Source of the DNA: Candidatus Brockarchaeota archaeon
Lineage (GTDB): Archaea > Thermoproteota > EX4484-205 > JAAOZP01
Assembly: GCA_017601225.1 (NCBI GenBank)
Contig: JAFNIX010000004.1
Coordinates: forward strand, 68,507 to 132,506
DNA length: 64,000 bases
Direction of reading: 5' to 3'
A model generated the notes under the pieces. It saw only the letters and a program-made list of their open reading frames with translations. It was not told the DNA's origin and did not search any database. A program made the translations under genes and the position numbers. This document shows, in pieces, positions 54,792-64,000 of the stretch. Every line of letters begins with the position of its first letter. Position 1 is the stretch's first letter.

Positions 54792-55982
54792 CTACTGTGA
54801 TGGCTGAAAATAGTTTGCGAGCTCAACCCATGCTCGTGAAGAGTCCAAACAGACATCGGCGAAGACGAGTACCCCTGAAGCCCCCGCTCTCATTGCCCCT
54901 TTGACGGAGTCAACCCACTCCCAGCCAGGCATGTTCCCAGTTGTTGACAACGAGCCGCCGACGCAAGGCATAACCAGCACACTACTATTACTCTTCTCAA
55001 CCTGCTCAACTATACTCCTAGCAGTATCCTCAACCCATTTAACAGGCATACTGTTATCCCTATGGTAAAGCATTGGGCAAACAACGTCGACGAGACCCTG
55101 CCGCACCCACTCGCTCCAATCAACACCCATAGCCTGCCTATTCCAATTCGAATCGTAGGAAACATCTGCTGATAAAACTATGTCCGGGTTAATCTGTTTC
55201 ACAGCACTCCTAATTTCCCTCAGGAAATCCGTTACGATCTGCGCCCTCCAGCCTATCCACTCGCTCCTTAGGCTTCCCCCAGCCAGCACGTCTTGAGGCC
55301 AGTTCTGCACCTTCCTACCGAGGAACGATTCGAAAGACCTTCTCGCGTTCTCGCTGAAGTCAGCCTCAATGCCTGGCGGAAAGCCGAAATCATCCTCTAT
55401 GTTTATACCGTCAACACCATACTCCTGCACCAGCTCAACGATGTAGGACTTTATATAGTTCCTAGCACCCTCACTTGCCGGGGACAAGTAGTACCAGCCC
55501 CATTGATGGAAGGACCCGTGTGAAAGCTGGTCCTCACCCTTCTCGTTAACTATCCCCCAGTCAGGATGTTGAAGAAGCACCGACCTGCTCGTCCTGAATC
55601 CCACAACCCACGCCCATACCTTCAGGCCGTTTCTATGGCTTTCCTCAACAACTATTTTCAAAGGATCCTCGTCGCTTTTAAAATTACCGAGGTAATCCAT
55701 GTCAACTGGAACTATTTTACTCCTGTAGTCAGGCAAACCCCCCGCGTGGACTACGAAGGGCAGCACAATGTTGAACCCGCTGCTCTTGATTTTACCTATA
55801 TAGAACGTGAAATTCCTCGAAACAGACCTGTCGGGAAACTCATACATGTATAGGAAAACTCCTCTTAACTCCGGCTTCGGAGGCTCTTCAATCCTCATTA
55901 TCCTGTTCAACAAGAAGTATGAAGCCACTATCAGAAGCAATACCAGAACTGGAAAAACAAGCATTGTGCTTCTCTTAGACAC
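54792..55982 (-). CDS. GHL10-like (glycosyl-hydrolase-like family 10 / YngK-like) membrane-anchored protein
   Basis: N-terminal TM anchor with TIM-barrel-like segments (VDGINIEDDFGFP, GLVDVVCPMLY). Paralogous to 56271..57494. Confidence 0.5.
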   Translation of the reverse strand: MSKRSTMLVFPVLVLLLIVASYFLLNRIMRIEEPPKPELRGVFLYMYEFPDRSVSRNFTFYIGKIKSSGFNIVLPFVVHAGGLPDYRSKIVPVDMDYLGNFKSDEDPLKIVVEESHRNGLKVWAWVVGFRTSRSVLLQHPDWGIVNEKGEDQLSHGSFHQWGWYYLSPASEGARNYIKSYIVELVQEYGVDGINIEDDFGFPPGIEADFSENARRSFESFLGRKVQNWPQDVLAGGSLRSEWIGWRAQIVTDFLREIRSAVKQINPDIVLSADVSYDSNWNRQAMGVDWSEWVRQGLVDVVCPMLYHRDNSMPVKWVEDTARSIVEQVEKSNSSVLVMPCVGGSLSTTGNMPGWEWVDSVKGAMRAGASGVLVFADVCLDSSRAWVELANYFQPSQ

Positions 55983-56270
55983 GTAATCTTAGTAGGAAAA
56001 GCGTTTAAAAAGCTTAACAGTTGGCCAACGTGAAAAAACACCTATAACTCTGAGGACAATGTCAGACACCTACCAAGGTGAATCACAGCCACTGGGCTTG
56101 GGATAGCCCGGGGCTCGAGGATCTTCAGAGTCTTGCTTTAGAAGAAAACAATTGAGAAGCAGAGGAACGAATGTTAACAGCATGAGAGGCCGCTCCCCGT
56201 TTGGAACAATGCTTTTTCACACCATATTTGACCACGGTTTTGAAACTCAATTTTAAATAGGACTGTTGGT

Positions 56271-57494
56271 ATGTGCTTCCCGAGGAAAGTGTCGAGGATC
56301 AGCATTTTTATACTCTTGCCGATGCTCCTGACTTCAACGATGCGGATTACGCCGAATGCTTCAACCTCTTCTGTGAAAAAGGATTTCTTCGTAGGAGTCT
56401 GGCTGGGAATGTATAGCGACTATTGGCCCAGTGAGAAAACAGAATGGTTGAGAAAGGTCGACGAATCCTTCATGTCCCTCAGGGAGGCAGGAGTCGACGC
56501 CATCTACTTTCTAGCTAAAGACCCTTGGGGATATGTTTACTATGAATCCAAGTATGCTCCATTATCCGAGAAATACAGTTGGGATCCTTTGAGAGAGGTT
56601 GTGGCGAAAGCTAGGGAACACGGGCTTCAAATATATCCGTATGTAAACGCACTGGCTGAAGGAGAAAGTCAGCCGAACTTCTATCTGAAAGAGCATCCTG
56701 AGTTAGCGGTTTCGCCAGCAAACGGTGAAAACGGTTGGGTCGACCCGTCTAGCGAAGAATATGTTGATAGACTGCTATCCATCATTGAAGAAATCGTTTC
56801 AAACTATGATGTTGACGGAGTACAGTTGGACAGGATAAGAATGCCAAGCCCAGTAATCAGGGCGAAAGCCAGTGAAAAACTCTATATGGAGACAACCGGC
56901 CTCTCACCAGGCAGCGACGAAAAAAAGTGGCAGGAATTCGTTAAAAGCCAGGTTTCTAAAGTTGTGCAGAAAGTATGCGAAAAAGTTAAGTCGATAGACA
57001 GGGGCCTGAAGTTTTCTGCCGCGGTTTTCCCCTCTCCTTCGAACGCGGCTGTAAACCAGCTTCAAGACTGGAGGAAGTGGGTTGAAGAAGGATGGGTTGA
57101 CTACGTGTGCACCATGGCTTACGCACAAGGGTTCTACGTCTTCAAGTCTTACGTTGATGAGGAGAAGATGGCTTGCGAGCCTGAAAAACTATACGTGGGG
57201 ATAGGTGCATGGCAATTGTCACCCTCTGAACTGAAAAAACAGATAAAGTATGTTGCAGTGGACTCAGGGCTGCCCGGGGTGCTCTTGTTCAACGCGGATT
57301 CTCTACTCAGCAACAGGGAGCTTCTTAACGCTGTAAGGGAAGCAAAAGACGGAAAGTTTGAAGAAGACTCATCATTCTTCACAAATCTGTTTAGCACAGC
57401 CTCGGTAATAATATTGTTCTGTGCAACACTGTCCTTGTTCTACCAGCTTAGGAAGAAGCCTGGGAAAAACGTTTCTCAGAAGAAAGCTTATTAG
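56271..57494 (+). CDS. GHL10-like protein with a signal/anchor and a C-terminal TM helix
   Basis: VDGVQLDRIRMPSP and GWVDYVCTMAY parallel the divergent neighbour. The C-terminus carries a hydrophobic helix followed by a basic tail. Confidence 0.5.
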   Translation: MCFPRKVSRISIFILLPMLLTSTMRITPNASTSSVKKDFFVGVWLGMYSDYWPSEKTEWLRKVDESFMSLREAGVDAIYFLAKDPWGYVYYESKYAPLSEKYSWDPLREVVAKAREHGLQIYPYVNALAEGESQPNFYLKEHPELAVSPANGENGWVDPSSEEYVDRLLSIIEEIVSNYDVDGVQLDRIRMPSPVIRAKASEKLYMETTGLSPGSDEKKWQEFVKSQVSKVVQKVCEKVKSIDRGLKFSAAVFPSPSNAAVNQLQDWRKWVEEGWVDYVCTMAYAQGFYVFKSYVDEEKMACEPEKLYVGIGAWQLSPSELKKQIKYVAVDSGLPGVLLFNADSLLSNRELLNAVREAKDGKFEEDSSFFTNLFSTASVIILFCATLSLFYQLRKKPGKNVSQKKAY

Positions 57495-57516
57495 ACTAAT
57501 AGGCTTTCAAAGAGTA

Positions 57517-59472
57517 ATGCTCAGGATAAAGGTGAACTCTAAGCTTCTAGAGGCCGGCGACAAGATTAAACTGACGATTAGACCAGGAAGGAAGGCTCCG
57601 GGAAAGATAAGGCTTTTGAAACCCGGCGGTGAACCCTTAGAGGTTGAAACAAGACTAGGGGGAAACGTTGCTACAGTCACCTACTCAGACACAGATAGGA
57701 AGGGTCTTTACGTGTTCAACATTAAGACGAATAGCAAGACGTACAAGAAATGGGTGATGGTTGGGAGCATGATGCTGGACTGGTATAGTGTTTCTGAGGA
57801 AAATGGCCGAGAAGACGTTATAAAATATCTCGATTCCTTCTCACACATCGGGAACGTGATTGTACTACACAACATAACTGGGCCTATGAAAACACTATAC
57901 CCTAGTAGAAGGTTTCCAGTCGCCAGTAAGCAGGATCCAGATTTCTTCGACTTTTTCTTGAAGGAGACCGCTAGAAGAGGCTGCGCAGTCCTTTTCTCAT
58001 ACCATTGGGTTCCAGAGACCCATGTTGACATGTGGAGGTTTCCATCCAGAGAGCAGACCTCTCAGGCCAAGATGGTGATAAGAGAACTGTATCAGCTCTA
58101 TTCCAACTATGACTCTATGGCTGGGTTCTACTCATACTGGGAGCCGGGAGACACTGCCGAACTTCCTTACTACAAAGAAACCCTAGACTATGTTAAGAAG
58201 CTGGACGACGGGCTTTTCACTGCAGCAGCACCATACTTGTTCTCAACCGAGAAATACCATGGAGGCTCATTACCATTAATGTTTTCAGCTTTATCAACTG
58301 TTGGAAGCCTGGATTGCTTAATACCTCAGTCCAGTGTGGCAGTATACCCTTATCCTTTGAACAAGACTAAGGATCATGCCGCTCTAGCCGTAGGCTCCTC
58401 AACCCCCCTAGGGAAAATCGTGCTTGGCCATGTTGAAACGTTCGCAAGGGTTTTCGTGGAAAACGAGAGGGCTCCTCCTGTAGAATTCATCAAGGGCCAG
58501 GTTTTAAGCGCATCGTTCACGAGAGGTGCTCACGGAGCTTCAACATTCATCTACTCGTTATTGTTCAAAAGGGATGAGAATACTGTTCGCTCTTTCGAAG
58601 AGGCTGTCAGGTGGCTTAAGGAAATCAGCATGTTTCGAAGAAAGCTGAGCCCAGTTGGGATCTACGCACCCTTAGACCCTGATCATTGGCCAACTGTTCT
58701 GAGTCCATTCCTGAGGAAGCTCCGGACGCTCGGTTTGGACGCTAGTGTATTGCAGCCGCCGCTCTGCAAGAATGAAAAATGGGAGAGGTTTGTTGAAGAC
58801 AATATTAGGGTAATAGTATTGCCAGATCCTCCAGAGTTAAACGAGTCTGAAACGAGGTTTTTGGGAAATTATTTGAAGAAAGGAGGGTCGATCATTGTCC
58901 TAGGCTACCCGCCTAAGGGTCTTAGACGCCTCCTAGGGGTGGAGAGCAGGAACATTGGTAAATATGGGGGTTTGAAACTGTTGGAAAAGATGGCTGACAG
59001 GGTTCCCGCAGGCACCCTCAAAAGGTTTGGTTTTGAACTCGTGTACTGCGTGACTCCGACAGAGGCAAAGCCCATAGGGGTCTATGAGTCAATACCCTCC
59101 GGGTTCCAGCCTGGCGCATACGGGATCACGAGGATGGAGAGCAGGGGAGGATGCAGGGTATTCATAGGAATACCCTCTGCAGTGGTTCTGGAAAAAGTAC
59201 CGGAACTGCTTTTAGACGCGGTTGATTCAGTGCTTTCCAGATCTGGCCTAAGGATCCCGTGGGAGATTCATGGATTGACTGAGGATTGCGACTCACTCGT
59301 TGGAGAAGACTTCATCCTGGTGGTGAACCTTTCCGAAGGAGAAATAAAGGTGACAGCCAAGCACAGGGGTGAGAACCCGCCAGCCTCCTTCGAGCTAATG
59401 GGCAGCCACCAAGGACACGTGAAGCTCGACAGGGACCGTTTAAAATTACCCTTAAGCCGTTCGAACCCATAG
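57517..59472 (+). CDS. DUF4434-like glycoside-hydrolase-type TIM-barrel protein with a C-terminal GATase1-like domain (tentative)
   Basis: The ORF opens at 57421 inside the upstream gene; ATG 57517 removes the overlap. The SMAGFYSYWEPGD segment and a later VIVLPDPPELNESE...GGSIIVLG segment are suggestive only. Confidence 0.4.
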   Translation: MLRIKVNSKLLEAGDKIKLTIRPGRKAPGKIRLLKPGGEPLEVETRLGGNVATVTYSDTDRKGLYVFNIKTNSKTYKKWVMVGSMMLDWYSVSEENGREDVIKYLDSFSHIGNVIVLHNITGPMKTLYPSRRFPVASKQDPDFFDFFLKETARRGCAVLFSYHWVPETHVDMWRFPSREQTSQAKMVIRELYQLYSNYDSMAGFYSYWEPGDTAELPYYKETLDYVKKLDDGLFTAAAPYLFSTEKYHGGSLPLMFSALSTVGSLDCLIPQSSVAVYPYPLNKTKDHAALAVGSSTPLGKIVLGHVETFARVFVENERAPPVEFIKGQVLSASFTRGAHGASTFIYSLLFKRDENTVRSFEEAVRWLKEISMFRRKLSPVGIYAPLDPDHWPTVLSPFLRKLRTLGLDASVLQPPLCKNEKWERFVEDNIRVIVLPDPPELNESETRFLGNYLKKGGSIIVLGYPPKGLRRLLGVESRNIGKYGGLKLLEKMADRVPAGTLKRFGFELVYCVTPTEAKPIGVYESIPSGFQPGAYGITRMESRGGCRVFIGIPSAVVLEKVPELLLDAVDSVLSRSGLRIPWEIHGLTEDCDSLVGEDFILVVNLSEGEIKVTAKHRGENPPASFELMGSHQGHVKLDRDRLKLPLSRSNP

Positions 59473-59527
59473 GTGTGAAGCTGGTTTTTTAACAGTTTCT
59501 TCCTAAAAATAAGTCTTATAGAAAGAA

Positions 59528-59675
59528 CTAGCGCATGCTTCACGTTTCTTATCCTTATTTTCGGCACGATCCGACCCGCCCCATTCCTAGTCCTCTTGCT
59601 GACAGCGTCTACGGATCGAAGCATCTTAAGGACCATGCTTCCAGCACGATGTTTTTTCCCAGAATCTCTCCCCGC
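59528..59675 (-). pseudogene. Relic 3' end of a TldD/PmbA-family gene (left direct repeat)
   Basis: The minus-strand translation VLKMLRSVDAVSKRTRNGAGRIVPKIRIRNVK aligns ungapped, 22/32 identical, with the C-terminus of the intact gene at 63634+. There is no upstream gene body. A 1-nt indel removes the stop, producing the read-through ORF 59268..59636. Confidence 0.6.
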
Positions 59676-59774
59676 TCAGCTACTAGCTTTTCGACTCCTA
59701 GTGTATACTGATAAGCTGACAAGAATCCTTTAATTTTTTATAATAATATATTTTATATATGCCTAAAAATTAAG

Positions 59775-59782
59775 TTTAAATA
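59775..59782 (+). promoter_or_regulatory. TATA-like box TTTAAATA (a second, TTTTATATAT, lies at 59751-59760)
   Basis: It lies within an extremely AT-rich stretch (59730-59790), with its 3' end 23 nt upstream of ATG 59805. Confidence 0.4.
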
Positions 59783-59804
59783 TTGCCATACGAAGACCTA
59801 TTGG

Positions 59805-59963
59805 ATGCTCAGCATACGTGCTATAGAGAAAGCACCCCAAGAAAGTTATGAGGCTCCTAAAGTGTTTTCACCCCTGCCAGGAGAACCAGTAGAACCATGT
59901 GGACACGCGCATGCCCATCTCAAGTATGTTGCAGATGCAGACTACGATACCTCCCCAACATAA
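59805..59963 (+). CDS. Candidate RiPP precursor peptide (52 aa, not in the ORF track)
   Basis: My own translation: MLSIRAIEKAPQESYEAPKVFSPLPGEPVEPCGHAHAHLKYVADADYDTSPT. It uses the first ATG after the in-frame stop at 59712-59714 and ends 9-12 nt before the maturase start on the same strand. Confidence 0.4.
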   Translation: MLSIRAIEKAPQESYEAPKVFSPLPGEPVEPCGHAHAHLKYVADADYDTSPT

Positions 59964-59975
59964 GATTGTATATTG

Positions 59976-61343
59976 ATGACAGGAATTTCAACAGATGATG
60001 TTTTTTCTCCAAGCCTTGGAACAAAATTACTCCAAAAAAGAGGAATTAAATATTTCTTGCTAATCAATCCAAACCTATTTTCTTGTGCAAGAATTAACCA
60101 GACCGCACGCGAGATATTTGAACTTTGTAATGGAACAAATAGCTTAGAAGACATTTCGAAAATTCTCTCCAATAAATACGGTATTGATCTTGAAAGATTG
60201 AGAAAAGATGTGGTTCAAACTACTGAGTTGCTCTATTCCTATGGTTTGCTAGTACGTCCTAATGATCCTAATCCGATTCCTCAAGACATGTTTCGAGTAG
60301 GTAACTTGGAAGAAGTCTGGATAAATGTAACCAATAAATGTAACCTGCATTGCCTGACATGTTTCAAAAATGCTGGAACCAAGTATCCAAGAGAATTAAC
60401 GGTTGAAGAAATCGAAAGTCTTGTTAAAGAAATTTCATCGAATTTTCATCATCTGACTGTAATAATTAGCGGAGGCGAGCCTACTCTAAGAGAAGACCTG
60501 ATTCATATTTTAAAAGTGATAAAGGATAACATGTTAAAGGTACATTTAATTACCAATGGCACACTGTTGACCAGGAGCATGATAAGTGAATGGAAAAGTA
60601 TTGGGGTTGATTTCGTGCAAGTTAGTTTGGACGGAAGTAAACCCGAAGTTAACGATGTCATAAGGGGGGAAGGCATTTTTCAACAAGTAGTAAACAACGT
60701 AAAGTTATTAAAGGAATTTGATCTTCGGTTCAGTTTATATCCAACAATTTGCAAACTCAATTTGGAGGACGTGCCAAACATGATAAAACTTTTTAGCGAA
60801 ATAACTGGTAGATCGCGGTTTAGCGCAGCGTTTTTTGCTCCTGTTGGAAGAGGTTCAATTAACGAAGGAGATCTCGCAGTGAGTTCAGATGATTATATCG
60901 AGTTGTTTAAGAGAATAATTAAAGACAAAAGATTAAGCCCCATGATGAGAAATTTAGAAGGTTTTGAGTCCCAAATAGATAGAGTCCCACCTAATTTGAC
61001 GAGAAAATTGAATTGTGGTCTTGGAACAGCTACCATAAGCATAGATGCAGATGGCTCAGTTTATCCCTGCCATTGGTTACATTTACCTCAATATAAGGCA
61101 GGAAACATAAGAGAAAGACGGTTCTCCGAGCTCTATTTTAAATCTGAAGTCTTACAAAGACTTCGAGGAATACGTGTGGATAAACTTGAAAATTGTGCAG
61201 AGTGTGAGATACGCTATCTCTGCGGAGGTGGTTGCAGAGCTCTTGCACTCATTAAGAATGGTTCCCTAGAAGCCAGATTTCCTTATTGTGATTTCTTTAA
61301 ATTCTATTTTGACCATGCATTATGGGGAGTGTGGGACCTGTAA
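59976..61343 (+). CDS. Radical SAM / SPASM peptide maturase with an N-terminal PqqD-like RRE domain
   Basis: The N-terminal ~95 aa (INQTAREIFELCNGTNSLEDISKILSNKYGIDLERLRKDVVQTTELLYSYGLLV) are PqqD-like. CNLHCLTC is the CxxxCxxC motif, with SGGEPTL nearby. C-terminal SPASM: CGLGTATISIDADGSVYPCH...CAECEIRYLCGGGCRA. TTG 59973 is an alternative start. Confidence 0.85.
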   Translation: MTGISTDDVFSPSLGTKLLQKRGIKYFLLINPNLFSCARINQTAREIFELCNGTNSLEDISKILSNKYGIDLERLRKDVVQTTELLYSYGLLVRPNDPNPIPQDMFRVGNLEEVWINVTNKCNLHCLTCFKNAGTKYPRELTVEEIESLVKEISSNFHHLTVIISGGEPTLREDLIHILKVIKDNMLKVHLITNGTLLTRSMISEWKSIGVDFVQVSLDGSKPEVNDVIRGEGIFQQVVNNVKLLKEFDLRFSLYPTICKLNLEDVPNMIKLFSEITGRSRFSAAFFAPVGRGSINEGDLAVSSDDYIELFKRIIKDKRLSPMMRNLEGFESQIDRVPPNLTRKLNCGLGTATISIDADGSVYPCHWLHLPQYKAGNIRERRFSELYFKSEVLQRLRGIRVDKLENCAECEIRYLCGGGCRALALIKNGSLEARFPYCDFFKFYFDHALWGVWDL

Positions 61344-61344
61344 A

Positions 61345-62427
61345 ATGAATGCTATAGAAACCCAAAACCTCACAAGAGTGTTTGAAAGATATAACTATAC
61401 TGACACGCAGGTAAGTATGGATAGAGAGGATAATCCGGGCGGCCTATTTTTGTCGCTTTATAACAGATACTTCAATAAAAATGTCAAAAAAGAGACGATC
61501 TATGCGGTTAATGAAGTAAGTATCAAAGTGAAAAAAGGTCAGTTAGTTTGCATTCTAGGGCCAAATGGATGTGGAAAAACAACCTTGTTAAGAGTCCTTG
61601 CGACCCTATTGAAGCCAACTCAAGGAACTGCCTACATCATGGGTCATGATGTCGTTAAAGAAGAAAAAGTGATCTGGAGATATGTAACCTATGTGGCCGG
61701 ATTGCTTACCGGGGGGGCTTGGATGGATTTCCGCCTTACGCCAAAGGATATTCTCACGATTCAAGCGAGGCTGTATGGTTTTCCGGAAGAAAGGATCAGA
61801 GACGCGCTTGAACTTTCAAGACTTATAGATGTCGCAAATGTTAGGGTCTCCACATTTTCCACAGGCATGCTTGCTAGGCTCTCCGTCGCAATAGGTTTGC
61901 TGAGGGACTCGCCGGTCTACCTTTTAGATGAACCTATGGTTGGAATTTCAAAGGATGTTACTGAAGAGTTATATTCTTACGTGAAAAATAATATTCAAAA
62001 AAGGGCAGGAGCCACATTCTTATATGCGACAAATAACGTACTTGAAGCTCAACGTCTAGCTGATGAGATCATAATGATGTATAGGGGTAAGGTTATTGCC
62101 CAAGGAAAGGTAGATGAACTCATTACAAAGTTCTTTAAAGAACAAGCGATCGATATCGAAATTTCCAATTGTTCGTCCGATATCTTAAAGTCGATAGATA
62201 GTCTACCGAAAGTCTCAAAGATAATAAATCTTACAAGCAAAAACGAATCTGATATTACTTTAGTGATATACACTGCATCCCCCAGAGAGATTTTACCAAT
62301 CCTAATTCGAGAGATTTTAGAAAAGAATGGAGAGATCAGATACATAAAAGTTCGCGAGCCCACTTTAGAAGATGTCTTTATCAAAGTTATGAAAGAAAAA
62401 TCGAAGGAGGGTGAAGTTGCAAGTTGA
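61345..62427 (+). CDS. ABC transporter ATP-binding protein (ABC-2 type) with a C-terminal accessory domain
   Basis: GPNGCGKTT Walker A, FSTGMLARLS signature variant, VYLLDEP Walker B. ATG 61345 starts 1 nt after the maturase stop. The track ORF opens at 61288 inside the maturase gene. Confidence 0.8.
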   Translation: MNAIETQNLTRVFERYNYTDTQVSMDREDNPGGLFLSLYNRYFNKNVKKETIYAVNEVSIKVKKGQLVCILGPNGCGKTTLLRVLATLLKPTQGTAYIMGHDVVKEEKVIWRYVTYVAGLLTGGAWMDFRLTPKDILTIQARLYGFPEERIRDALELSRLIDVANVRVSTFSTGMLARLSVAIGLLRDSPVYLLDEPMVGISKDVTEELYSYVKNNIQKRAGATFLYATNNVLEAQRLADEIIMMYRGKVIAQGKVDELITKFFKEQAIDIEISNCSSDILKSIDSLPKVSKIINLTSKNESDITLVIYTASPREILPILIREILEKNGEIRYIKVREPTLEDVFIKVMKEKSKEGEVAS

Positions 62428-63293
62428 GATTTCAGCAACTATGTACAAAGATCCGATTTTACATGCATCACTTCTTCAGATTCTTTATCTTTAATCTATT
62501 AATGCGGTATTATTGGATGGAGTGGATGTTGCCTTTCCACATCGTTAATCTGATTATCGGAGTATCCACATGGATATTCTTCGCCAACACCTTTGGAAGT
62601 TCCAGTCCATTTCTTCAAAATTATGGTAATGATTTCATCTCGTTTTTAATTTTGGGTTTAATGTTTAATAGCCTGTTTGCCTATACTCTAGATGGCTTTC
62701 GCATTTCGACACTTCTTTTCTTGAGGGGAAGGATTGGGAGCATGGGACAGCATTTAAGCATGTACGATTATGTAAAACTTTGTGGAATACCGGTCTCCGT
62801 GCCAATTCTCGCATGGTTAATTGACGGCTATATAGAGACATCTATAACTTTACTTGTTTACCTTATCGCCGGCATTATCTTCGGTCTAAATATTGGTTCT
62901 GGTAATTATCTTGTAGCGCTTGTCGGCATATTGATTGGATTGTTTGCAGTGGCAGGAATTGGACTACTTTCAGCAAGCATGATAACGATTGCTGGAGCTT
63001 GGAAAGGAATCGAACCTATAAGTTGGCTCGTCAAATTGTTAGTTGGCTTACTGGCAGGCGTGTATTTTCCGACAGAAGCACTTCCAGATAGTCTGCAACT
63101 TATTTCTCTACTATTACCACATACCTATGCACTTAAGATAGCACGAATGGCCCTCTTGACGGGTTTCGGTTTTGAAAGCTTGATCTCAGAGTTTCTAGCA
63201 GTTTCATTAATGAGTTTGATTCTTTTTCCACTTGGGATAATAGTATACAGGTACTCGATCGCTCTGATAAAGATAAAGACGCTCGTTGAATAG
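62424..63293 (+). CDS. ABC-2-type transporter permease
   Basis: 289 aa with about 6 hydrophobic helices. The TTG start overlaps the ATPase TGA (TTGA); ATG 62463 is an alternative. Confidence 0.65.
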   Translation: MRFQQLCTKIRFYMHHFFRFFIFNLLMRYYWMEWMLPFHIVNLIIGVSTWIFFANTFGSSSPFLQNYGNDFISFLILGLMFNSLFAYTLDGFRISTLLFLRGRIGSMGQHLSMYDYVKLCGIPVSVPILAWLIDGYIETSITLLVYLIAGIIFGLNIGSGNYLVALVGILIGLFAVAGIGLLSASMITIAGAWKGIEPISWLVKLLVGLLAGVYFPTEALPDSLQLISLLLPHTYALKIARMALLTGFGFESLISEFLAVSLMSLILFPLGIIVYRYSIALIKIKTLVE

Positions 63294-63310
63294 TTCACTT
63301 CAAGAAACGC

Positions 63311-63326
63311 TTTTTGGCGTTCAAAA
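63311..63326 (+). terminator. Small hairpin with a T-run just after the permease stop
   Basis: AACGC-TTTTTG-GCGTT starts 18 nt after TAG 63291-63293. The stem is weak (5 bp). Confidence 0.25.
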
Positions 63327-63633
63327 CGGACAATATCCTTCTGAAGTAGCAGTTGCGCCATTCGGTTAAGGCCTGTCTCTTAAGGGCGATGAGAGCCAGC
63401 GGGGGCATTCCAATACTGATATGCGAGGGAAGACGACATAGGCTTGGCGCGTTTGTTGACTCCGGGATAGATGCGGCAAAAGTTTAAATTGTTCCAACTG
63501 GAGTATAGCGCGCGCTAGTGTTTTCTAGCGATTGAGGCGTGTGAACAAACTGGCATAGGGTGCTCGGAATCCGGTTTGCGGAGAGGCACTGGGGACTTCG
63601 ATGAGCGCGCGCCATTCAACCATTTTTCGTATC

Positions 63634-63790
63634 CTAACCGCTTACCTTCACTTTTCCTATCCTTATTTTCGGCGCGACCCGCCCCGCCTCGTTCCTAGTC
63701 CTCCTGCCAACAGCGTCCACAGATTGAAGCATTTCAAAAACGGTGCTTCCAACCATAGCGTTCTTCACAGGATGCTTCACCTCCCCGTTT
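63634..63790 (-). repeat. Right direct repeat (3' end of the intact TldD/PmbA gene)
   Basis: It shares the identical 16-mer tatccttattttcggc (63658-63673 versus 59550-59565, 4108 bp apart). By eye, identity is about three quarters over roughly 110-150 nt. Confidence 0.6.
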
Positions 63791-64000
63791 TCAACAAGGA
63801 ACCCGTGGTCGATGAGGCTTGAGATATTAGTTGACCCCCCGACTGGTCCTAATGAACTGTCGTAAACATATATTCCCCGCTTCACGTCTTTAAAGAGCTC
63901 ATCGTCTCCATAATCCCCCGAAGCTATCTGGAGATTAGTTAGGCTGGGCACAGGCTTCTCGGCTAAACTGGGCCTAGCTGCATGCCCATTGTTCTCAATA
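63634..64000 (-). CDS. TldD/PmbA-family metalloprotease, C-terminal part (gene continues beyond the window)
   Basis: LTNLQIASGDYGDDELFKDVKRGIYVYDS..G......NISSLIDHGFLVENGEVKHPVKNAMVGSTVFEMLQSVDAVG......GRVAPKIRIGKVKVSG is a typical TldD/PmbA C-terminus. The frame stays open to position 64000; the M at 63951 in the track is an internal GTG. Confidence 0.75.
   Translation of the reverse strand, partial: IENNGHAARPSLAEKPVPSLTNLQIASGDYGDDELFKDVKRGIYVYDSSLGPVGGSTNISSLIDHGFLVENGEVKHPVKNAMVGSTVFEMLQSVDAVGRRTRNEAGRVAPKIRIGKVKVSG

Follow-up and report, generated by a model that had tools for sequence, protein, structure and literature searches.

A stretch of 64,000 nucleotides (nt) from Candidatus Brockarchaeota archaeon (assembly GCA_017601225.1, contig JAFNIX010000004.1, positions 68,507–132,506 of the forward strand; hereafter the window) contains a 52-codon open reading frame (ORF) at 59805–59963 on the plus strand. 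In this analysis, comparison with related loci pointed to this ORF as the probable precursor of a ribosomally made, post-translationally modified peptide (RiPP). Its product is very likely the substrate of the enzyme encoded directly downstream, a maturase with a PqqD-like RiPP recognition element (RRE), a radical S-adenosylmethionine (SAM) domain and a SPASM domain. As judged from the aligned members, the peptide belongs to a small undescribed family of archaea and bacteria with the core HxHxH…DxDxD. For the modification, cross-links from His to the Asp beta-carbon, forming two or three nested rings over a hairpin, are tentatively proposed by analogy with known enzymes.

The ORF runs from ATG 59805 to TAA 59961–59963 and encodes MLSIRAIEKAPQESYEAPKVFSPLPGEPVEPCGHAHAHLKYVADADYDTSPT; its coordinates and translation were re-read and agreed with those given in a first-pass annotation of the window. 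The start had been described there as the first in-frame ATG after a stop at 59712–59714. This was found to be correct and to extend to other start codons, with no ATG, GTG or TTG between that TAA and 59805. The maturase gene follows on the same strand, 9 nt after the stop codon if counted to TTG 59973 and 12 nt if counted to ATG 59976. Both this gap and the three domains of the product had been stated earlier, and Pfam returned all three. The box reported 23 nt before the ORF was placed at 59775–59782 (plus strand); it is an archaeal TATA-box-like element, TTTAAATA, and its last base precedes the first base of the ATG by 23 nt. With such spacing, an mRNA made from this putative box would have no leader or almost none. 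A/T-rich boxes were also seen 22–26 nt before the start codon in three related loci (L002, L004 and L005) and at about 40 nt in a fourth (L007). The ORF had been called unlisted, which is true of the ORF track supplied for the annotation but not of GenBank, where the identical protein is a hypothetical protein of Thermoproteota/Candidatus Brockarchaeota metagenome-assembled genomes, called in three assemblies (MBO3797876.1, MEM2087109.1 and MEM3389995.1).

Searching with the 52-residue protein gave two metagenomic relatives, P0002 and P0003, each encoded directly upstream of a PqqD-radical SAM-SPASM gene. When the DNA of the window was aligned with these two loci, similarity extended from about codon 13 to the stop and was confined to the ORF, with differences located mainly at third codon positions. 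DNA identity with L002–L004 also dropped away outside the ORF. Nei-Gojobori counts of synonymous (pS) and nonsynonymous (pN) differences per site were made between the window ORF and four diverged relatives of the archaeal type (L002, L005, L007 and L014). In the first 12 codons, pS was saturated and pN was 0.5–0.6; in the leader motif block, pS was 0.5–1.0 and pN 0.13–0.40; in the last 20 codons, forming the core, pS was 0.65–1.08 (saturated) and pN 0.09–0.24. This is the pattern of a translated peptide whose N-terminus is free to vary, whose leader motif is constrained and whose C-terminal core is under strong constraint. By these comparisons, the ORF is a real protein-coding gene under purifying selection.

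Contigs of maturase homologues from 60% down to 38% identity were fetched and their flanks were translated. A family ORF was adjacent to the maturase gene in 19 of 19 loci, including the window, in which the flanks could be read and the homologue was intact and at least 36% identical. The 18 further loci (L002, L004, L005, L007–L018, L020, L025 and L028) have maturase homologues of 36–60% identity; 4 of them were reached via peptide-first searches, 4 via a metagenome scan (L018, L020, L025 and L028) and the remainder via the two peptide relatives named above and the maturase-homologue contigs. Two loci were excluded from the count: L006 (Fervidicoccus), the contig of which starts 47 nt before the maturase gene, and L003, in which the peptide is present and the contig ends before the maturase gene. 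The peptide ORF is located upstream of the maturase gene in L002, L004, L005, L007, L008 (a WOR-3 bacterium), L010 and L012/L013, and downstream of it in two bacterial-type loci, L009 (2941–3207) and L011 (3182–3448 and 3494–3667). In L011, it occurs as two tandem precursor copies, ending in ...HVHGMGFDADGD and ...HVHGMGFDADGE. Caspase-like peptidase genes lie farther downstream of these two copies, and in L009 a gene for an IS630-type DDE transposase is located directly upstream of the maturase gene.

The metagenome scan, for which an alignment of 16 maturase sequences served as the seed, gave 80 loci, the short ORFs of which were scanned for the core pattern H.H.{2,14}D.D.[DE]. The pattern was detected only in L018, L020, L025 and L028, the four loci whose homologue was full-length and at least 36% identical, and was absent from all 74 loci with maturase homologues of 34% identity or less. 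As a chance rate, one match was observed in 828,732 six-frame control codons (the 74 distant loci, the window and L001), and it fell inside a 391-residue ORF. The peptide profile, searched against 5.8 billion proteins and 1.84 billion representatives, returned a handful of further small proteins; two of the matches, P0131 and P0132, are each encoded directly upstream of a radical SAM-SPASM gene. The strongest non-family match, P0130 (1138 residues), was set aside as a false positive: it is a large NTPase-like protein with seven ankyrin repeats (about 650–1138), and was matched because an ankyrin repeat reads GHxEVVKALIDADADV. A maturase-only search of species-representative genomes gave only L001 (28% identity, unrelated), and is weakly informative because it was made by exact 8-mer back-translation.

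Conservation of the ORF beside orthologous maturases had been set in advance as a test, and was observed at every locus of at least 36% identity with readable flanks; the reciprocal peptide-first search agreed. The first-pass proposal, a RiPP precursor recognized by the PqqD-like RRE of the neighboring enzyme, is thus supported by co-occurrence in the 18 further loci, by absence beside the distant homologues and by a YxxPxV motif in the leader.

Conserved features were read from an alignment of nine diverged members, in which five positions were invariant: Pro18, His36, Asp44, Asp46 and Asp48. The first of these is part of the leader motif Y15-E-A-P-K-V20 (59847–59864, plus strand), a YxxPx[V/I/L] motif proposed as the RRE docking site. 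The aligned members of the archaeal type carry YE[APRT]P.[VI], in longer form Y-E-x-P-x-[V/I]-F (YERPLA in L010), and those of the bacterial type carry x-x-x-P-x-V-L. The PqqD-type RREs of lasso peptides and related RiPPs bind their leaders via YxxPxL and YxxP/WxxP motifs, and the lasso YxxPxL motif spans positions −17 to −12 (PMC10368454, PMC13381572). When the lasso spacing is applied to Y15–V20, the core would start near residue 32, where conservation resumes. Short ORFs with the same leader motif were also found before two distant maturases, L027 (2250–2372; EYEAPKV) and L077 (1937–2104; WEKPEL). The cores of these ORFs are unlike the family and contain Cys (GPAQTCSPTPAGIQN; NGCKAES...AGCHSAT), and the maturases are 27% identical to that of the window in L027 and 34% identical, over the RRE region only, in L077. 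Since it precedes unrelated Cys-containing cores, the motif appears to be a generic docking handle, common to different RiPP families.

The core signature, H34-A-H-A-H38 LKYVA D44-A-D-Y-D48 (59904–59948, plus strand), is the proposed site of modification. Throughout the family, the core consists of H-x-H-x-H (H-x-H in two subtypes), a loop of 4, 5, 6 or 8 variable residues, and D-x-D-x-D/E. Examples are GHAHAHLKYVADADYD, GHLHAHLKYVADLDTD, EHAHIHWKYVADADYD, THGHLHIGGLLDADFD and HSHTHTCSVFGVIDADTD, and further HSHSHSCGEYSNSDSDSD, HTHKHGSGASVSYDSDSD, LHWHILWTLFDTDAD, GHSHWHFKPFDCDSD and HVHGMGFDADGD. The layout drawn earlier from the window peptide, a Pro/Glu-rich leader-like half followed by a half with one Cys, an alternating His run, Lys-Tyr and an Asp/Tyr-rich tail, was borne out in part: the Pro/Glu-rich half holds YxxPxV, and the His run and Asp residues are constrained, but Cys32 and Lys-Tyr are not conserved. 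At the position of Cys32, L002, L004 and L025 have Glu, L005 has Ser and L014 has Tyr; no core Cys is present in L007, L010 and L011, and the bacterial subtype has HTHTC. In place of Lys-Tyr, L010 has Gly-Gly, other pairs occur in more distant members, and Lys-Tyr is missing elsewhere; Tyr is not conserved in the family.

Pfam and NCBIfam scans of the window peptide and of nine family members gave no match, and literature searches for a His/Asp radical SAM RiPP or an HxHxH…DxDxD precursor found nothing relevant, in keeping with the earlier remark that no described family has this core. The family ranges over Thermoproteota, Brockarchaeota, WOR-3 and Acidobacteriota.

The maturase gene is located at 59976–61343 (plus strand), with TTG 59973 as an alternative start, and its product is named in GenBank as a 'PqqD family peptide modification chaperone'. 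Pfam detected the domains PqqD (E 1.7e-9), Radical_SAM (E 2e-30) and SPASM (E 1.8e-9). The RRE is N-terminal (residues about 40–93), the CX3CX2C radical SAM motif reads CNLHCLTC, and seven SPASM Cys residues (C347, C365, C407, C410, C416, C420 and C438) are invariant in the 16-sequence alignment. An AlphaFold2 model had a predicted local distance difference test score (pLDDT) of 92.9; its closest structural match was CteB, followed by SkfB, SuiB, anSME, TigE and PqqE, with EpeE at rank 31. By sequence, the best solved relatives were anSME, CteB and PqqE. From its domains and model, the enzyme is a peptide-modifying SPASM maturase with an N-terminal RRE. The structure comparison did not separate chemistries, as CteB (thioether), SuiB (C–C) and TigE (cyclopropyl) all match. 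NCBIfam scores were 169 bits for WgkB (cut-off 650), 162 for StsB (625), 140 for MftC (265), 122 for PqqE (381), 117 for PapB (340), 93 for SCIFF (425) and 91 for DynA (450). The enzyme being far under every curated maturase cut-off, nothing transfers by homology.

For the peptide, AlphaFold2 with an 8-sequence alignment predicted strands at residues 34–39 and 43–48 (pLDDT about 77). The i, i+2, i+4 spacing of both arms and the variable loop would fit a hairpin with one face bearing His on one strand and Asp on the other, and every observed loop length permits the same symmetric His-Asp pairing. In the window peptide, the pairs would be H38–D44, H36–D46 and H34–D48. The following sequence of events is proposed. 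The leader motif would dock on the N-terminal PqqD-like domain of the enzyme, and the radical SAM site would abstract hydrogen at an sp3 carbon in the core, for which an Asp beta-carbon is the most plausible choice. The resulting radical would couple to a His imidazole via C2 or a ring nitrogen, giving a product with two or three nested His-Asp cross-links that lock the beta-hairpin, each with a mass change of −2 Da. The leader would be removed by a protease encoded elsewhere, and an ABC-2 transporter encoded downstream would export the product or protect the producer.

Both halves of the proposed reaction have precedents. PapB and QhpD form links from Cys to the Asp C-beta. In dynobactin, a His N is linked to a Tyr C-beta. 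YxdB links Tyr C3 to the Asp C-beta, and HaaB, HtkB and YhhB link His C2 to C-beta (PMC11499958, PMC11002830). These precedents for Asp beta-carbon abstraction and for radical coupling to His favor nested His-Asp cross-links, which we put forward as a possibility rather than as the expected outcome.

Several points weigh against the proposed chemistry, or against the precursor role from which it starts. Support for the precursor role is comparative. The family is rare, with 8 real clusters among the 1.84 billion representatives plus a few uncalled ORFs at the DNA level, and its maturase reaches none of the curated NCBIfam maturase cut-offs. No family peptide was found near two 52%-identical maturase fragments, L019 (2447–3376) and L043 (2411–2899); the former is truncated after about residue 275 and the latter is without the RRE, and both are probably decaying clusters. 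No leader protease is encoded in the archaeal cassettes. As to the chemistry, His-Asp linkage is drawn from the conservation pattern and analogy, the hairpin was predicted with moderate confidence (at the pLDDT given above, with 8 sequences), and the register of the pairs was deduced from where the predicted strands begin and end and not read from coordinates. Only two His are present in some members (L008 and L011), and the Asp run might be there for recognition, solubility or the binding of metal instead of cross-linking.

Other readings of the core were considered. The His run might be modified in the manner of triceptides, with three-residue cyclophanes joining His C2 to the beta-carbon two residues on, in overlapping HAH, HAH and HLK, and with the Asp run serving recognition or solubility. 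Radical SAM-SPASM enzymes do form His cyclophanes on HAA, HNR and HTK (PMC11499958, PMC11002830), some known His-cyclophane precursors carry 2–3 Hxx motifs, H-x-H is invariant in the family and could act as such a motif, and HLK of the window resembles HTK. However, the family has K, G, C, M or L at position 3 of the motif that begins with the last His, and Gly has no beta-carbon; D-x-D-x-D/E invariance is left unexplained, and no triceptide maturase model was among the best 25 NCBIfam matches. Triceptide-type rings are one of two main alternatives to His-Asp linkage, each somewhat less probable than it.

The second main alternative leaves the His and Asp residues unmodified, as metal ligands of a secreted peptide or as contacts to the auxiliary cluster of the enzyme, while the maturase would carry out some other modification, for instance epimerisation or linkage inside the loop. 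HxHxH together with DxDxD is a classic hard/borderline ligand set, the hairpin model would place these ligands on one face, and radical SAM epimerases of related fold exist, EpeE being among the structural matches. Against this, the loop between the arms has no conserved residue to modify, and the cassettes carry exporters only, with no uptake binding protein or receptor.

Production of an intracellular redox cofactor in the style of PqqA/PqqE or mycofactocin is suggested by the PqqD domain, by partial matches to the PqqE and MftC models and by the presence of PqqE among the structural matches. It is nevertheless very improbable: a conserved Glu-x3-Tyr and a C-terminal Val-Tyr are both missing (the window peptide ends in TSPT), Tyr is not conserved, PqqE and MftC scores are far under their cut-offs, no pqqB/C or mft partner genes are present, and the conserved accessory is an exporter. 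A single-Cys thioether, making the peptide a sactipeptide or ranthipeptide, could appeal to thioether-forming CteB as the best structural match, to the partial StsB and PapB scores, to Cys32 in the window and to HTHTC in the bacterial subtype. This is hardly tenable and already contradicted at the family level by the replacement or absence of the core Cys described above and by the low StsB, PapB and SCIFF scores. The earlier judgment that a multi-thioether sactipeptide is unlikely was likewise upheld, there being no conserved core Cys and the thioether-maturase models scoring far under their cut-offs. Finally, the short length, the adjoining AT-rich stretch and the absence of a curated family match might suggest that the ORF arose by chance in AT-rich promoter DNA, or that it is regulatory and has no product. 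This is already refuted by the comparative data, that is, by frame-specific purifying selection with saturated synonymous sites, by retention across phyla and domains, and by the position downstream of the maturase gene in L009 and L011.

The precursor and maturase genes form part of a four-gene cassette with the order precursor, RRE-radical SAM-SPASM maturase, ATP-binding cassette (ABC) ATPase and ABC-2 permease. The DrrA-like ABC transporter ATPase gene is located at 61345–62427 (plus strand); its product matched Pfam ABC_tran and DrrA1-3_C, and scored 192.9 bits with NCBIfam drrA (cut-off 312). The mechanically called ORF starts from GTG 61288 and overlaps the maturase gene by 56 nt; ATG 61345, one base past the maturase stop, is the likelier start and is at the same place as in the gene call of L004. 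The ABC-2-type permease gene (62424–63293, plus strand; 289 residues) gave a weak NCBIfam drrB match (E 5.4e-5), and a gene for 285–289 residues is found at the same position in L004, L006, L007 and L010. The permease is presumed to be an export or immunity partner. An ABC pair follows the maturase gene in L004, L006, L007, L010 and L025, and the bacterial loci have a fused ABC exporter after the maturase gene.

In the high-GC bacterial loci L012/L013 and L016/L017 (17–5534, minus strand), a divergent MacA/MacB-like efflux system and a sigma-54-dependent response regulator are encoded beside the precursor, maturase and exporter genes, which suggests regulated export or immunity. In L008 (1–2074, WOR-3), genes for an M16 (PqqF-like) peptidase and a sigma-70-family factor lie directly upstream of the precursor gene, and this peptidase is a candidate leader protease. 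TldD was also considered as a dedicated leader protease, and was set aside since tldD/pmbA occurs near no other family locus. Its adjacency in the window is explained by the location of the cassette at the duplicated 3′ end of the gene.

This duplication consists of two 128-nt direct repeat copies, 77% identical and 4108 nt apart. The left copy (59538–59665), which borders the low-GC cassette on its left side, is what remains of the final approximately 43 codons of a tldD/pmbA gene, coding on the minus strand; its minus-strand translation, ...MLRSVDAVSKRTRNGAGRIVPKIRI..., parallels ...MLQSVDAVGRRTRNEAGRVAPKIRI... of the intact gene. The right copy (63646–63773) is part of the 3′ end of the intact tldD/pmbA (minus strand; stop 63634–63636; Pfam PmbA_TldD_3rd, E 1.8e-21), the frame of which is continuous to the window end, where the gene runs off. 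The cassette region between the repeats (59666–63645) has 39.7% GC compared with 46.8% for the rest of the window, and bin 60001–62000 had the lowest GC of the 32 window bins. The homologous cassette of L010 (2000–5457) likewise stands out in composition, with 47.5% GC and flanks of 60–63%, and the same four genes occur in unrelated neighborhoods in L004/L025, L007 and L010. Given the low-GC island, the flanking repeat and the unrelated neighborhoods, the cassette appears to move horizontally, and in the window it looks like an insertion at the 3′ end of tldD/pmbA that restored the gene. No integrase gene or tRNA was found near the window cassette, the tRNA scan of the cassette region being empty, as was an Rfam scan of the same region. 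Plasmid and phage collections yielded only maturase relatives of less than 31% identity, which places the cassette on no known mobile replicon. Immediately to its left is an ORF of 683 residues (57421–59472, plus strand), for which Pfam and NCBIfam gave nothing at E ≤0.01. This ORF comes after two GHL10-type glycosyl-hydrolase-like genes (54792–55982, minus strand; 56271–57494, plus strand).

Comparison with known systems places the cassette near several of them. PapB and QhpD are SPASM maturases, PapB with an RRE, that act on repeated motifs (in PapA for PapB) and take hydrogen from Asp/Glu side-chain carbons, which they connect to a donor at another place in the peptide; the donor in these systems is always Cys, whereas this family has no conserved Cys and the maturase is well under the PapB cut-off. 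In sactipeptides such as subtilosin and thurincin, donors on one hairpin arm link acceptors on the other, which is the topology proposed here. Sactipeptides and SCIFF peptides join a Cys sulfur to an alpha-carbon; in the proposed product, His would replace Cys and the Asp side chain would be the acceptor, and the SCIFF score is also far too low. CteB, which acts on CteA, has the same order of RRE, radical SAM and SPASM domains as the window maturase and is its best structural match.

Dynobactin offers another likeness, in that a radical SAM-SPASM enzyme joins a ring nitrogen of His to a beta-carbon (summarised in PMC11002830). Dynobactin and darobactin (DynA, DarE) differ in having Trp/His/Tyr motifs with a 3-residue span and in being Gram-negative products, whereas the window core has no Trp and the DynA score is low. 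Lasso leaders carry the same type of motif, Y-x-x-P-x-[L/V/I], with a PqqD-like B1 RRE as the presumed reader (PMC10368454, PMC13381572). Here, in contrast, the RRE is fused to the radical SAM enzyme, and Pfam detected no cyclase or B2 protease domain in the ORFs of 54792–63951. HaaA/HaaB, HtkA/HtkB, YhhA/YhhB and YxdB resemble the present system in combining a SPASM maturase and a short precursor, and in using a His imidazole as partner or an Asp beta-carbon as acceptor (PMC11499958, PMC11002830). The His triceptides and YxdB are bacterial and form three-residue rings on an aromatic-x-x motif; the family described here has two arms, HxH(xH) and DxDxD/E, set 4–8 residues apart.

The cassette is filed as an RRE-dependent radical SAM RiPP system because the standard architecture is present: an adjacent ORF, the expected enzyme domains, co-occurrence and a two-part precursor. 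It is not placed among the sactipeptides, ranthipeptides, PQQ, mycofactocin, lasso peptides or dynobactin, since defining features of each were looked for and were not found. A rule-based finder of biosynthetic gene clusters would probably label it a sactipeptide or ranthipeptide cluster, as the rules key on the enzyme, and by the family data such a label would be wrong. Most cross-links known from radical SAM peptides depend on Cys, Trp or Tyr, which this core lacks, and there is thus a fair chance of a new bond type. Among the many uncharacterized families of radical SAM RiPPs, this is an archaeal one with a compact, well-delimited and apparently mobile four-gene system, a clear candidate substrate and comparative data that name the residues that matter. 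If His-Asp cross-links are formed, both the bond type and the topology would be undescribed for any RiPP, and would make a new class in hot-spring archaea and bacteria. Its product, encoded on a mobile cassette of four genes, might then be a hairpin that binds metals or has antimicrobial activity. According to a 2025 survey, validated archaeal RiPPs are haloarchaeal lanthipeptides only and archaeal radical SAM RiPP clusters are predictions (PMC12144867). The product of the Brockarchaeota cassette would, if the proposal is true, be the first radical SAM-modified peptide characterized from Archaea.

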